A stretch of 64,000 bases of DNA from IMG/VR virus record IMGVR_UViG_3300029240_000001; one strand, written 5' to 3'. Source of the stretch: a virus. Each line of letters starts with the position of its first letter. The stretch's first letter is position 1. The translations under genes were made by a program, and so were the position numbers. Below, piece after piece: positions 2,576 to 61,986 of the stretch. A model generated the notes under the pieces. It did no database searches. It saw only the letters and a list, made by a program, of their open reading frames with translations, and had not been told where the DNA came from.

Positions 2576-2604
2576 TTGACAAAACAAAATTATAGCGTTA
2601 TAAT
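2576..2604 (+). promoter_or_regulatory. consensus sigma-A type promoter with the conserved element in its spacer
   Basis: TTGACA, 17-nt spacer, TATAAT. Spacer reads AAACAAAATTATAGCGT. Confidence 0.75.
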
Positions 2605-2651
2605 CATAATAACAAATGAATGATTATAGTTTTTGAATGGAGGTATTCCTT

Positions 2652-2882
2652 ATGAACAACCAACGCAGAAAAAAAATAGAAATTCTATCCACGGAAATTG
2701 AAAAACTTAGTAATCGTATCCAAGATATTTGTGATGAGGAACAAGAATGCTTGGATAATATGCCAGAAAATCTACAAGGAACTGACAGGTATAGCAAGGC
2801 AGAAGAATGCTGTGAACAGCTTGAAGAATGTATTGATTTGCTTAGTGAAGTGATTGACATCATGGAGGAGGTCGTAACGTAA
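2652..2882 (+). CDS. hypothetical acidic coiled-coil protein
   Basis: ATG at 2652 lies 8 nt after GGAGG (2639-2643). Confidence 0.55.
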   Translation: MNNQRRKKIEILSTEIEKLSNRIQDICDEEQECLDNMPENLQGTDRYSKAEECCEQLEECIDLLSEVIDIMEEVVT

Positions 2883-3365
2883 ATGAATAATGGCATCATG
2901 TGTGATTATTTTGACTATGACGGAATTAGATATTATGCTGGTTCAAAATTTAAATGTAACAATTTTGTAAAGACAAACGTTCAACTTTTTCCAGAAATTG
3001 AAGTCACATTTGTCAAGTATAATAAGAAGTCTAATATTTGCCGCATTCGCAGTAATGTTGCTATGTGTGAATTTGAGTTCGCGCTTAGTACTTTTACAGA
3101 CAATATTATTTGCGTCACTTGTCCTAAGACAAAAGAAGTTGTAAATAAAACAAATGAAAAATATGAAAATGACAAACAATATTATCACTGGGTCGAAGAC
3201 GGAGAAGACTGTTATAAGGCAAAGCCAGATGCCATTGGACTAGGTTGGGTGTGGTACATTTCTCTTATGGTAGTTGCGACGATCTTCAAGGGAGCTCTTG
3301 GTCTCTGGGCTCTTATTACGTTTGTTTTTGTAAGATGGAGAAAAAAGAAAATTAAGGAGGGATAA
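2883..3365 (+). CDS. hypothetical protein with C-terminal transmembrane helix
   Basis: Hydrophobic stretch GLGWVWYISLMVVATIFKGALGLWALITFVFV near the C-terminus. Confidence 0.55.
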   Translation: MNNGIMCDYFDYDGIRYYAGSKFKCNNFVKTNVQLFPEIEVTFVKYNKKSNICRIRSNVAMCEFEFALSTFTDNIICVTCPKTKEVVNKTNEKYENDKQYYHWVEDGEDCYKAKPDAIGLGWVWYISLMVVATIFKGALGLWALITFVFVRWRKKKIKEG

Positions 3366-3368
3366 AAA

Positions 3369-4343
3369 ATGACAGGCAGGACTGAAAAGGAAATTGCGTC
3401 AACTAAAAAAATGCAAGAAAAACTGAAAGAACTTCCTAAAATCTTTTCTGAATTTTATTATTATATGTGTTCAACAAAATCTTATACAACAGTTGAAAGA
3501 TATATTGCATATGTAAGGGAATTTGCAGAATTCTTGAATGATGGGGACATTCCAAATAACTTTTACAAGAGAGTTACTCCGCTAGATATTAACAAATATT
3601 TTGCGGCAATGAAGAATAAAGAAAGCGCACATGGGCATTATAATACGAGTGACAGTATTCGTGCGACAAAATGGTCTGCGCTGAATACTTTCTTTGGATT
3701 TCTTAAGAGTAATAACTATATTGCAAATAATCCAATGGAGAGAACGGAGCGTCCAAAAGTTCAGGATAGACCAGATGTCGCCTATTTGACAGAAGAAGAG
3801 ATGCAAGCAATTCTAGACAATGTAAACAAACTTGCAAGCACAAAGATGAAAAACAGAGATTTGGCAATTATTATGCTTGGACTTACAACTGGACTTCGTG
3901 TATCAGCACTTACGCAAATTGATATTAGCGATATTGATTTTGAGAATAATACTATCAAGGTTATTGAAAAGCGAGGAAAAACATGTAATATTCTTATTGG
4001 AGATAAGGTAAAGGAACAGCTCGAATTGTGGTTACAAGATAGAAAAAAATATTTTAGCATGACAGATTCCGATGCGCTGTTTATTTCTAGTTTTAAGAAA
4101 AGAATTACTAGAGATGGAATCAGGGTGATTCTAGAGAAATATAGCAAAGATGTTACAAATAAGCATGTTACTCCACATGTACTAAGGCATTCTTGCGCAA
4201 CAAATCTATATGAGAAGACAGGAGATATTTATCTTTGTGCAACAGTGCTAAATCATAAAAATATTGCTACTACCATGAGATATGCAAGTATGTCTAAAGA
4301 TAAAAAACAGAAAGCAGCAAATATTTTGAACGACATGATTTAA
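3369..4343 (+). CDS. tyrosine recombinase (XerC/XerD-phage integrase family)
   Basis: Motifs TTGLRVSAL, HVLRHSCATNL and HKNIATTMRYA give the R..HxxR..Y catalytic pattern. Confidence 0.8.
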   Translation: MTGRTEKEIASTKKMQEKLKELPKIFSEFYYYMCSTKSYTTVERYIAYVREFAEFLNDGDIPNNFYKRVTPLDINKYFAAMKNKESAHGHYNTSDSIRATKWSALNTFFGFLKSNNYIANNPMERTERPKVQDRPDVAYLTEEEMQAILDNVNKLASTKMKNRDLAIIMLGLTTGLRVSALTQIDISDIDFENNTIKVIEKRGKTCNILIGDKVKEQLELWLQDRKKYFSMTDSDALFISSFKKRITRDGIRVILEKYSKDVTNKHVTPHVLRHSCATNLYEKTGDIYLCATVLNHKNIATTMRYASMSKDKKQKAANILNDMI

Positions 4344-60804: not shown

Positions 60805-60813
60805 CTGCCTTTG

Positions 60814-61905
60814 TTATGAAATACTTACTTGTCGTATAGGTTTATTAATAATTAACTCTCCGTTTACGACCTCTGCATCAAATTCATTAAATGGGCATAC
60901 GCTTCCATCGTCTTCAAGCGTAAGCACGCCATTCGAAACGTCCGTACCAATTTCTAACTTCACGTCCTTGAGTTCTCCTCTTACAATCATTTTGTGTCCC
61001 TCAACTTTGATATTAGTCCAAATTGGAGGGTTCTTTGTTGTATCGCCTTTAATTTTTAATACCTTGCCTTCTACCCAAACGGTTAATCCATCTTTTAGGT
61101 CATAATCATTTAATAGCCCATCTGCTACCTTCATTGGGTATCTGAACTCAATTTTTAATGTCCCAGATCCATTTGCTGAAAAGTAATTAGTTCCGGGCAG
61201 CAATGTTGGGAATATAAAATTGAAATCATCGTCAAAGATTCTCTTGTCGTTCGTAGAATATACAACGAAGTTACTATCTATTGTAACCGTTTCGTCCTGT
61301 TGCAATTTTTCAAATTTCGTTTCGTTATTTAATGACTTATTTTTAATAAGCAAGCTCCCATTGTTTGAACTATTCTGAAATGTTACCTTCGGATAAATAT
61401 AAGAATAAATGTCATCACTTTGGTTGTCTATTGCAAATTCAGTTTCTCCTGCAATTTTGATTTCTACAGGATATACTTTTGAATACGCCCACGGACTTAC
61501 TGCAGTAAACGTAGCTACGACTCCAATAACTCTCGCGTCCATTTTCTGAAGCTGTACATTCGTGAATCTACCAAGATATGAACACACAACGTCTCCATCT
61601 TTGTCGCAGACATCCATCCATGCGTTGCTTCTAGAACCAGTAAGCCAGCGCAATGTATTTCTAACTTTGTATGGGCCAATATCAGACCCATCTACTTCTA
61701 CAAATGTTACAGACGGAGTTGCGACAGAATTATATTTTGCGCCATAGTCTGTGCGCATTGTGCCATCATAGCTATCAGTAAAAACTGGCTCCATATCTAA
61801 GTATGAATCTACTGTGCCGTTATCTGGATTGAATGTGCTTACAACAAGTTCTAAATCATAATTTGTTTGATTGCGGAAACGAATTTTAGGATGATATATC
61901 GCCAA
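60814..61905 (-). CDS. distal tail protein (Dit)-like
   Basis: TTG start 8 nt after AGGAGG; positioned between the tape measure and Tal genes. Confidence 0.55.
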   Translation of the reverse strand: MAIYHPKIRFRNQTNYDLELVVSTFNPDNGTVDSYLDMEPVFTDSYDGTMRTDYGAKYNSVATPSVTFVEVDGSDIGPYKVRNTLRWLTGSRSNAWMDVCDKDGDVVCSYLGRFTNVQLQKMDARVIGVVATFTAVSPWAYSKVYPVEIKIAGETEFAIDNQSDDIYSYIYPKVTFQNSSNNGSLLIKNKSLNNETKFEKLQQDETVTIDSNFVVYSTNDKRIFDDDFNFIFPTLLPGTNYFSANGSGTLKIEFRYPMKVADGLLNDYDLKDGLTVWVEGKVLKIKGDTTKNPPIWTNIKVEGHKMIVRGELKDVKLEIGTDVSNGVLTLEDDGSVCPFNEFDAEVVNGELIINKPIRQVSIS

Positions 61906-61946
61906 GATATCACACCTCCTACTAACTACTTGAAATTATATAAATA

Positions 61947-61970
61947 GGAGAGAGCTGTTGTGCTCTCTCC
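61947..61970 (-). promoter_or_regulatory. 9-bp hairpin between the tape measure and Dit genes
   Basis: GGAGAGAGC-N6-GCTCTCTCC. Confidence 0.5.
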
Positions 61971-61986
61971 TATAATTTTGTGTTAT
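61970..61986 (-). promoter_or_regulatory. conserved element copy on the late strand
   Basis: The minus strand reads ATAACACAAAATTATAG followed by GAGAGAG. Confidence 0.55.

Follow-up and report, generated by a model that had tools for sequence, protein, structure and literature searches.

A dispersed 18-nt box as candidate operator of an MrpR/SroF-like repressor in a gut-metagenome phage

The repressor gene and its surroundings

The DNA analysed here, referred to as the window, is a stretch of 64,000 nucleotides from an uncultured phage of about 150 kb known from human-gut metagenomes. Gene 4416..5336 on its + strand encodes a protein of 306 aa which, judged by its sequence and its structural model, is a member of the MrpR/YopR/SroF family of integrase-fold repressors; the gene is called mrpR below. 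The product matches the Pfam models MrpR_N_CB (43.1 bits) and MrpR_C_cat (27.2 bits), each with a gathering score of 27, and gave no match to Pfam Phage_integrase. A phmmer search of the PDB sequences returned 9rd5 (5.8e-13) and MrpR, 8a0a (1.6e-11). When the AlphaFold model of the protein (pLDDT 89) was submitted to Foldseek, the SroF–DNA structure 9rd5 (7e-15) and 8a0a (1e-12) were retrieved, with true recombinases at about 1e-4. The DNA-reading helix K-F-x-x-(H/Y)-R, with residues taken from the work on phi3T SroF (10.1101/2025.11.27.690993), can be aligned in the product. In an hhalign alignment of low probability (10%), the Arg I position falls on K, N, L or Y across the family, and the HxxR and Tyr positions are unalignable.

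The promoter of mrpR (4350..4378, + strand) reads TTGACA-17-TACAAT. Just upstream, on the same strand, lies a gene for a YopP-like tyrosine integrase (3369..4343; Pfam Phage_integrase, 125 bits), whose catalytic-type R, H and Y residues are invariant in the alignment. A YopP-like gene adjoins mrpR in all relatives and also in phi3T and SPbeta. Downstream of mrpR, a LexA (Cheo) box, CGAACATATGTTTT (5405..5418, + strand), is located inside promoter 5401-5429, and it recurs at the same place in two relatives, L009 (CGAACACACGTTCT) and L011. It is followed by a conserved gene of 83 aa (5492..5743, + strand), by position only a candidate SOS-controlled antirepressor. All relatives fetched have a gene of 83–88 aa 3' of the repressor gene, and the motif H-x-x-Y/F-G-x-Q is common to the four products inspected (those of L013 and L014 were not among them). 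Neither phi3T Sar nor any PHROG family matches the 83-aa protein in sequence. Farther downstream, homologues of YorF, YorH, AAA_24, a helicase, YorJ, YorK and YorL are encoded.

Sequence and placement of the repeated box

The initial annotation had noted about 25 copies of a repeated element. A scan with a position weight matrix (PWM) finds 25 strong boxes (score 19.5–27.4) and four weaker ones (13–15), set apart from noise; at a threshold of 16, 25 boxes are observed and about 0.15 are expected from simulation. The conserved block is 18 nt long and reads R-ACAATACAAAATTATWG, that is, R followed by a 17-mer, and its flanks carry no information except for a T at -2. The enrichment over a shuffled background that had been proposed as a check is evident: 32 matches to ACAATACAAAATTATWG with at most three mismatches were counted, more than in any of 100 shuffles, versus an expectation of 2.1. 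The full dyad ACAATA-N6-TATTGT, described earlier at 12942, 27384 and 43654 with a one-mismatch form at 24430, is present as stated. Most boxes, however, have the TATAG form, which is not palindromic, and dyad symmetry is thus a weak argument for a regulator site. It is also not needed, because the MrpR/SroF family binds an asymmetric A-tract box as a monomer.

As first described, the copies are almost all intergenic: 22 of the 25 strong boxes lie outside ORFs in a window that is 84% coding (binomial 2.5e-15). They are also largely co-oriented with the local genes (22/25, p = 8e-5), and the orientation independence claimed at first was overstated. Most of the near-consensus promoters on the + strand of the window (12 of 14, defined by at most one mismatch to TTGACA-N16-18-TATAAT) carry a box, either in the spacer or 11–17 nt after the -10. 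By-eye reading of the listed promoter sequences revealed no other element common to them.

All six promoters previously listed as carrying a spacer box do so, with 11–12 of 12 matches to TTGACA/TATAAT and a 17-nt spacer. These + strand boxes are 2578..2595 (score 24.9; perfect promoter 2576-2604), 12941..12958 (19.5; perfect promoter 12939-12967), 19753..19770 (26.3; promoter 19751-19779), 24429..24446 (27.4; perfect promoter 24427-24455, YorJ-like gene), 27383..27400 (27.4; promoter 27381-27409, RecJ/YorK-like gene) and 43653..43670 (24.2; perfect promoter 43651-43679). A further case is the perfect promoter 5770-5798 with a degenerate box at 5772..5789 (+ strand, 14.7). An inverted box, weak in score (13.1), occupies the spacer of the mrpR promoter at 4357..4374 (- strand), where an inverted copy had also been seen earlier.

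In the second class, the box follows the -10, as had been described; the distance given then, 16–23 nt, did not hold, and the box starts 11–17 nt past the 3' end of the -10. On the + strand, such boxes occur at 5814..5831 (20.7; 15 nt past the -10 of promoter 5770), 12556..12573 (23.5; 17 nt, perfect promoter 12510-12538), 13087..13104 (26.6; 12 nt, promoter 13046-13074), 18299..18316 (26.6; 13 nt, promoter 18258-18285) and 37437..37454 (26.9; 11 nt, promoter 37398-37425). The inverted copy before int, likewise known from the first reading, is a perfect box on the - strand (51804..51821, 26.9) and starts 11 nt past the -10 of the int promoter 51764-51792.

About ten boxes are promoter-less, with no promoter of at most two mismatches nearby, and they occupy the gap from a stop codon to the next ribosome-binding site (RBS), which agrees with the third setting described initially. 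All on the + strand, they include 6092..6109 (26.9), which follows a stop codon and precedes the RBS for the YorF-like gene; 7241..7258 (24.8), with a hairpin (7215-7240) directly 5'; 19927..19944 (22.6), in the last part of a small ORF and 34 nt 5' of start codon 19979; and 21302..21319 (23.5), which overlaps the stop of gene 20200-21303, the next start being 15 nt on. A weak box (33375..33392, 15.3) lies 10 nt 5' of a start codon, 38139..38156 (20.1) abuts an AGGAGG RBS, and 40295..40312 (20.5) separates a stop codon from the RBS of the DnaE/YorL-like polymerase gene. Two more overlap stop codons: 44058..44075 (23.3), with ATG 44086 10 nt on, and 47499..47516 (21.8), with start 47541 24 nt on. 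The distance from box to start codon is 10–56 nt; that from box to Shine-Dalgarno is 0–10 nt in the post-promoter and promoter-less classes.

The remaining boxes are found elsewhere. An inverted box (5353..5370, - strand, 19.9) forms the T-tail of a terminator-like hairpin (site 5332-5357) after mrpR, head-to-head with box 5372..5389 (+ strand, 23.5), which is upstream of the LexA-box promoter. Another inverted box (51686..51703, - strand, 21.7) lies in the attP-like region from the xis-like gene to int. Within genes, a site at 27782..27799 (+ strand, 21.8; gene 27431-29146) is of doubtful function, and a weak, anti-oriented one at 25127..25144 (- strand, 14.7) is probably not functional. A single box (61970..61987, - strand, 23.2) is found in the late region of the window; as reported before, it is placed between the tape measure and Dit genes, and a strong hairpin follows it. 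The head-to-head pair 5353/5372 and boxes 19927, 27782 (inside a gene) and 51686 were absent from the initial annotation.

The short distance to the Shine-Dalgarno in two of the three classes and the strong strand bias could mean that the box acts in RNA, 5' of the Shine-Dalgarno, where a translational repressor would bind it or an antisense "anti-box" would pair with it. The anti-box would be carried by the leader of int and by the 3' end of the mrpR transcript: the int 5' UTR (51804-51821) and the mrpR terminator tail (5353-5370) would contain the complement of the box. The spacer class, however, is difficult to reconcile with this explanation: all eight spacer boxes precede the expected transcription start, so that the seven direct ones lie upstream of the start of their own transcripts and the inverted one is untranscribed from the mrpR promoter. 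No structure signal was detected at the boxes (mean fold z -0.25, median -0.06), no Rfam family matches at any of them, and the box has no complementarity to the Shine-Dalgarno. In addition, the related box of SPbeta works on the DNA level (PMC10516654). An RNA leader element, raised as an alternative at the outset, is not supported and seems highly improbable.

A second alternative, which extends the modified-polymerase promoter raised by the same source, holds that the box is a "middle" promoter for a phage RNA polymerase or sigma factor, or for a phage-modified host polymerase, with transcripts starting at or just past the terminal TATAG/TAATG. The promoter-less copies, about ten without a sigmaA promoter and one of them directly after a conserved hairpin, would then be middle-only, and the copies in or behind sigmaA promoters would be dual early and middle promoters. 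The element is 17–18 nt long and very strictly conserved, and its co-orientation with genes and position before start codons would suit a promoter. T7-type promoters are likewise 17–23 nt long, occur in near-identical, co-oriented copies close to ribosome-binding sites, and have a consensus that resembles the end of the box, TATAG followed by G or A. They differ in that the window boxes are nested in sigmaA promoters, inverted copies lie in promoters of lysogeny genes, and no such polymerase gene was found in the window. Neither an RNA polymerase nor a sigma factor was found among the 30 largest window proteins, and tblastn detected no YonO homologue. SPbeta YonO, moreover, has a single late promoter, and the box-bearing early genes are independent of it (PMC5467207); experiments identify the homologous SPbeta box as a site for a repressor (PMC10516654). 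The inverted boxes 4357, 5353, 51686 and 51804 face no credible gene, and the one in the mrpR spacer is conserved in relatives. One copy only in the late region also speaks against a promoter, as does the consequence that a temperate phage would lack any operator at its 12 consensus early promoters. This alternative is not supported either and is considered unlikely; for the promoter-less copies, the case against both alternatives is less complete.

Relatives and the probable reader of the box

Conservation in related phages, another check suggested at the start, was found. The relatives are gut-metagenome phages of about 150–170 kb, five in number (L009, L010, L011, L013 and L014), whose repressors are 42–57% identical. 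All five keep the box core ACAATACAAAATTA at 0.5–0.7 sites per kb, with counts such as nine versus 0.16 expected and 11 versus 0.06 expected, and the three placements are kept as well. A box at the operon junction matching 6092 is present in each of the five. The inverted box in the mrpR promoter occurs in four of six lineages, the window counted (degenerate in L009; also L011 and L014), and the hairpin and box pair of 7241 recurs in L009, L010 and L014 with different stem sequences.

In SPbeta-like phages, a dispersed repeated box, SPBRE or Phi3TRE, is bound experimentally by the MrpR/SroF family (PMC10516654; 10.1101/2025.11.27.690993). In SPbeta, MrpR binds SPBRE at 10 promoters, as determined by ChAP-seq with EMSA and lacZ fusions (PMC10516654). 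The SPBRE re-derived from SPbeta is cAAATACAAAaAATATGTAT; in an ungapped comparison, it equals the window box at 10–11 of 17 positions, including the 9-mer AATACAAAA and the terminal G, although some of this likeness between AT-rich sequences may be due to chance. Both phages have an A-tract box of 15–18 nt dispersed over the early region, co-oriented with genes and located in the spacer, behind the -10 or directly in front of the RBS. They also share the gene order, with the integrase-fold repressor gene beside the YopP-like integrase gene, followed by a homologous YorF/G/H/I...J/K/L replication module. The repressors, in contrast, are only about 23% identical, and the 3' half of the box is TTATWG in the window versus ATATGTAT in SPbeta. 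The window has 25–29 boxes in 64 kb and SPbeta about 14 in 84 kb; about ten of the former are promoter-less and intergenic. The two phages also differ in their recombination systems: SPbeta integrates and excises by means of the serine recombinase SprA, and the window has a tyrosine integrase gene, an attP-like region and an xis-like gene. The window yielded no homologue of AimR.

The best structural match of the 4416-5336 protein is SroF of phi3T, crystallised with DNA (9RD5) and with Sar (9RGL), which binds an asymmetric A-tract box as a monomer (10.1101/2025.11.27.690993). The phi3T boxes are likewise asymmetric, A-tract-rich and all co-oriented with genes, and the LexA-box promoter and small gene after mrpR resemble the published Sar arrangement, in which a LexA-controlled small gene adjoins the repressor gene. 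The differences are that SroF reads about 24 bp with a longer double A-tract, and that the candidate antirepressor of the window is not detectably similar in sequence to Sar and only mildly acidic.

Another protein might nevertheless read the box: the YopP-like integrase with its intact catalytic residues (3369-4343), the Arc-like protein (53137-53304) or a further regulator. With the integrase as reader, the box could mark gene boundaries at which recombination or cassette exchange takes place. The TATTGT subset forms a 6-6-6 dyad resembling a small recombinase core site, the YopP-like gene always adjoins mrpR, and several mosaic breakpoints versus close relatives, at 2546, 7257 and 13024, are no more than about 35 nt away from a box. 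This coincidence is not significant, because breakpoints fall in intergenic DNA anyway. Most boxes are of the TATAG form and not dyads, and so many recombination sites in direct repeat would delete essential genes. Co-occurrence does not separate the YopP-like integrase from MrpR as binder, because the integrase accompanies the boxes in every relative; in SPbeta, ChAP-seq assigns the box to MrpR and not to YopP (PMC10516654). A reader other than MrpR is judged quite unlikely.

The comparative evidence supports the reading first put forward, in which a global regulator encoded by the phage binds the element and the 4416-5336 product is one of the candidates. More specifically, the box appears to be the operator of the master lysogeny repressor, the MrpR/YopR/SroF-family product of 4416-5336, to which we assign a probability of roughly 0.8. 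Here, the protein is linked to the box through homology at 21–24% identity. Some observations fit less well. The box core is nearly invariant while the repressors diverge to 42% identity, the boxes of SPbeta and phi3T being quite different, and the 18-nt block is shorter than the sequence read by phi3T SroF.

A possible lysogeny circuit

By analogy with phi3T SroF, each asymmetric A-tract box may be clamped by a single molecule of the MrpR-like protein. Bound in the spacer or 11–17 nt after the -10, the protein would prevent RNA polymerase from binding or from escaping the promoter, so that nearly all strong early promoters would be silenced in the lysogen. The weak inverted box in the mrpR promoter would serve as an autoregulatory operator for negative feedback, and the perfect inverted copy behind the int promoter would allow the integrase to be switched off.

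Simple promoter occlusion fails for the promoter-less class, because all 10 ChAP-seq peaks of SPbeta were assigned to promoter regions (PMC10516654). These roughly ten boxes are most likely auxiliary operators, acting as roadblocks to read-through in the long early operons. This is the weakest step of the proposal, and a plain roadblock model would not lead one to expect the co-orientation of 22 of the 25 boxes. Induction would probably proceed via the LexA-box-controlled small gene 3' of the repressor gene, in analogy to Sar.

The window system most likely matches the recently described SPBRE/MrpR switch of SPbeta, and this kind of switch is already known. The proposed logic, a lysogeny repressor that would occlude early promoters and regulate its own, is also that of lambda CI at OR and OL. 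Lambda CI is a dimeric HTH protein with palindromic operators at two loci and RecA-stimulated self-cleavage (10.1101/2025.11.27.690993), whereas in the window the protein has an integrase fold and the asymmetric boxes, dozens in number, are dispersed.

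The repeated box and its placement

The window holds 32 matches to ACAATACAAAATTATWG with up to three mismatches, compared with 2.1 expected from dinucleotide-preserving shuffles, none of which reached 32. Alignment of the good copies yields a single conserved block of 18 nt (R followed by a 17-mer), referred to here as the box, the flanks of which carry no information except a T at position -2. A scan with a position weight matrix (PWM) is bimodal: 25 sites score 19.5 to 27.4 and four score 13 to 15, with noise below. At a threshold of 16, the 25 observed sites compare with 0.15 in Markov simulations. 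The repeated element of the initial annotation, and its enrichment over a shuffled background, are thereby confirmed. Of the 25 strong boxes, 22 lie outside open reading frames (p = 2.5e-15), in a window that is 84% coding. The same number are co-oriented with the local genes (p = 8e-5), a result that does not agree with the orientation independence assumed earlier. The early and replication region on the + strand (1-52 kb) contains all boxes but one; the late region on the - strand has this single copy.

Three placements had been described for the box. The + strand was searched strictly for promoters (at most one mismatch to TTGACA-N16-18-TATAAT), and 12 of the 14 promoters found bear a box; a separate scan of 1-20 kb with a promoter tool agrees. 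In seven promoters on this strand (2576, 5770 with a degenerate box, 12939, 19751, 24427, 27381 and 43651), the box fills the 17-nt spacer, as had been proposed. The GACA of these spacer boxes is also the end of the -35 hexamer, and in the TATTG form the TG of the box supplies an extended -10. At four promoters, the box (5814, 12556, 18299 and 37437) follows the -10, and box 13087 is placed in the same way behind a promoter with two mismatches. This second placement was correctly recognised, but the box starts 11-17 nt past the -10 in the four promoters, not 16-23 nt. The third placement, ahead of a Shine-Dalgarno sequence and with no promoter of up to two mismatches nearby, is also found, in about ten copies (6092, 7241, 19927, 21302, 33375, 38139, 40295, 44058 and 47499, with 5372 as a borderline case). 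These boxes fill the space from a stop codon, which they frequently overlap, to the Shine-Dalgarno sequence that follows.

The presence of copies in promoter spacers contradicts the suggestion that the box is an element of RNA leaders. Folding each box with 40 nt of downstream sequence gave no structure signal, and no Rfam family was found at any box.

Four consensus promoters form two tandem pairs at distances of about 80-110 nt: 12428-12456 with 12510-12538, and 12939-12967 with 13046-13074. The short intervals between them may code for small RNAs. P12428 is the sole perfect promoter without a box. The open reading frame 38171-38356, which lies behind box 38139 and a strong ribosome-binding site, has one in-frame TGA (MSKKCTCAYCK*KLNKEDAF...GEV*) and could represent a pseudogene, read-through or recoding.

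A candidate repressor of the MrpR/SroF type

The product of mrpR (4416-5336, + strand) passes both MrpR-specific Pfam domains, and its only crystal-structure matches by sequence are MrpR, YopR and SroF (E 6e-13 to 2e-11). Its AlphaFold model is confident (pLDDT 89) and matches the SroF-DNA complex of phage phi3T (9rd5, 7e-15), the SroF-Sar complex (9rgl) and MrpR (8a0a, 1e-12). The match values of Cre, XerA, lambda Int and other true recombinases are about eight orders of magnitude worse. A profile-profile alignment for the catalytic residues was weak. The gene directly follows a YopP-like integrase gene that retains catalytic-type residues, and the same succession of a YopP-like integrase gene and a repressor gene occurs in SPbeta and phi3T.

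In SPbeta, MrpR shifts DNA carrying its repeated box, SPBRE, and represses PaimR and PyosX fusions (PMC10516654). SroF, the repressor of phi3T, binds in monomeric form by clamping an asymmetric box rich in A-tracts, of which about 24 bp are read, and it is displaced by the LexA-controlled antirepressor Sar (10.1101/2025.11.27.690993, a 2025 preprint). SPBRE was re-derived here from the sequences that precede seven ChAP-seq targets. The resulting consensus, cAAATACAAAaAATATGTAT, has about 14 sites in the 84 kb of SPbeta and agrees with the box of the window at 10-11 of 17 ungapped positions, including AATACAAAA and the terminal G. The placements are also alike: the SPbeta box lies in the spacer at yonP, yorE, yorZ and yosX (TAGACA-box-TATAAT), and past the -10, abutting the ribosome-binding site, at yopV, yopM and the second yonX copy. 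At aimR it lies upstream of the -35. All SPbeta copies are co-oriented with their genes, as are the seven boxes in the stretch of phi3T that was examined.

The family match of the repressor and the likeness of the box to SPBRE make it likely that the boxes are SPBRE-type operators of an MrpR/SroF-type repressor in a family of uncultured gut phages. They also support the leading proposal of the initial annotation, a binding site for a phage-encoded global regulator. If recognition is monomeric and asymmetric, as for SroF, most boxes of the window (the TATAG form) need not be palindromic. A recombination site or cassette boundary, by comparison, would fit the palindromic subset only, and this reading was rejected, since breakpoints near boxes are not significantly commoner than expected for intergenic DNA. 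A promoter for a phage polymerase (T7-like or YonO) would account for the strictness of the box, its TATAG end, its co-orientation and the promoter-less copies, but no polymerase or sigma factor was found among the 30 largest proteins of the window, tblastn gave no YonO homologue, the YonO of SPbeta works from a single late promoter, the inverted boxes face no gene, and a temperate phage would have no operators at its consensus early promoters. This alternative was therefore also rejected; neither it nor the RNA leader, the two options named beside the regulator site, was borne out.

Metagenomic contigs of 150-170 kb carry a large family of repressor homologues. The 21-kb loci around five of them (57, 47, 47, 45 and 42% identical to that of the window) were compared. 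De novo k-mer counts rank ACAATACAAAATTA in every locus either first among the repeated words or no lower than fifth or sixth; locus L009 contains 11 boxes against 0.06 expected, and L014 contains nine against 0.16. The core of the box is nearly invariant although the repressor diverges to 42% identity, while the 3' end varies by clade (TATWG, TATTR or AATG). Each of the three placements is seen again, with promoter-less boxes at orthologous junctions among them, and the conservation in related phages called for by the initial annotation is thus found. An inverted box occupies the spacer of the mrpR promoter in the window (4350-4378, a weak copy), in L009 (degenerate), in L011 and in L014. That a box which faces no gene has been kept in the promoter of the repressor gene itself, despite this divergence, speaks for an operator that acts at the DNA level and for putative autoregulation. 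In the clade of L010 and L013 (repressors 47% identical), the inverted box is missing from the mrpR promoter (around 9930-9990), and another inverted repeat with a Cheo-like sequence, e.g. CGAATATGTGTTTG, is present instead, which suggests that the repressor gene is under different control there.

In the literature searched, only the SPbeta-like (arbitrium) phages of Bacillus are described as having a master repressor of integrase fold whose operator is repeated at dispersed sites. The same switch would now be seen in a widespread family of temperate phages of about 150-170 kb from human-gut metagenomes. The window provides a ready map of 25-29 putative operators. For an uncultured phage family, the regulon thus becomes predictable from sequence, and natural variants of box and repressor are available for specificity studies.

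The phage, its lysogeny genes and a candidate induction module

The phage is temperate and distantly related to SPbeta. Its early region encodes homologues of YorF and YorH (precomputed Pfam hits), a YorG-like AAA_24 protein, and homologues of YorI, YorJ, YorK and the DnaE-type YorL (tblastn), besides a NAD-ligase, NrdD, proteins of nucleotide metabolism and homing endonucleases. A tRNA cluster (14290-18035) includes a skipping-rope RNA at 16151-16230 (Rfam RF02924, 78.8 bits). An attP-like region at 51.2-53.0 kb, followed by tail genes on the - strand, consists of a xis-like gene for 64 aa (51219-51413), at least six TTGTGGTA-type repeats that resemble arm-type integrase sites (51420-51760) and are flanked by two inverted boxes, and a tyrosine integrase gene, int (51843-52985). 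A perfect inverted box lies 11 nt past the -10 of the int promoter (51764-51792).

Four features follow mrpR directly, in this order: a hairpin of terminator-like form with an inverted box (5353-5370) as its T-tail, a direct box on the + strand (5372-5389), a promoter (5401-5429) with a LexA/Cheo box, CGAACATATGTTTT, in its spacer (5405-5418), and a conserved gene for 83 aa (5492-5743). A LexA box is present in the equivalent place in L009 and L011. By its position, the last gene is a candidate for an SOS-controlled antirepressor like Sar; the two proteins have no detectable sequence similarity. Boxes 51804-51821 and 5353-5370 are inverted relative to those of lytic genes. The transcripts of int (in the 5' leader) and of mrpR (in the tail) would thus contain the box complement and, as a speculation, could act as antisense to lytic mRNAs whose leaders bear a box.

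A 152-kb contig (ENA ERZ773178 NODE_17) includes a stretch identical to the window. The exact mrpR product is listed in 258 blocks of a contig collection, and in 162 of them the longest contig carrying it measures 50-200 kb; one such contig record is labelled human gut metagenome. When the first 20 kb were compared with GenBank phages by megablast, no match was obtained. A scan of genome contigs found only two of about phage size, both from metagenome-assembled genomes and labelled Faecalimonas sp. and 'Prevotella sp.', hence the host remains uncertain. An exact 14-mer scan of viral contigs returned chiefly single chance matches; the contigs with multiple matches (140-170 kb) came from one gut virome data set.

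Boxes between genes

The promoter-less, co-oriented intergenic boxes are conserved, and the work on SPbeta gives no account of them. With somewhat less than even probability, they serve as auxiliary operators or roadblocks inside the long early operons. It seems rather doubtful that they reflect a second mode of an integrase-fold clamp repressor, namely orientation-dependent roadblocks within operons, possibly with action on mRNA, in which the orientation may carry information. Lytic genes have the box in direct orientation, whereas the lysogeny genes mrpR and int have it inverted. Neither a roadblock mode nor orientation as information is described for SPbeta or phi3T in the accessible literature. 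Were the roadblock reading true, one monomeric protein would silence 50 kb of early genes from within, and the intergenic boxes offer a clear test case of whether a clamp-type repressor can act in this way.

A perfect 10-bp hairpin without a following T-run (7215-7240) abuts the promoter-less box ahead of the AAA_24/YorG-like gene. Hairpins occupy the equivalent spot in L009 (about 12835-12860), L010 (about 13123-13148) and L014 (about 12773-12795) with different stem sequences; the structure is thus kept while the sequence changes. A GIY-YIG homing endonuclease gene (7277-8287), absent from the near-identical relative L008, begins right behind box 7241. Mosaic breakpoints relative to the near-identical loci L004-L008 lie at 2546, 7257, 11596-11677, 12330-12426 and 13024, three of them within about 35 nt of a box, and L005 shares a homology island of about 155 nt centred on the promoter and box at 12510-12573. 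Behind the only late-strand box, in the interval that separates the tape measure and Dit genes, lies a very stable hairpin (61988-62010, GGAGAGAGC-N6-GCTCTCTCC) with a fold z of -6.7.
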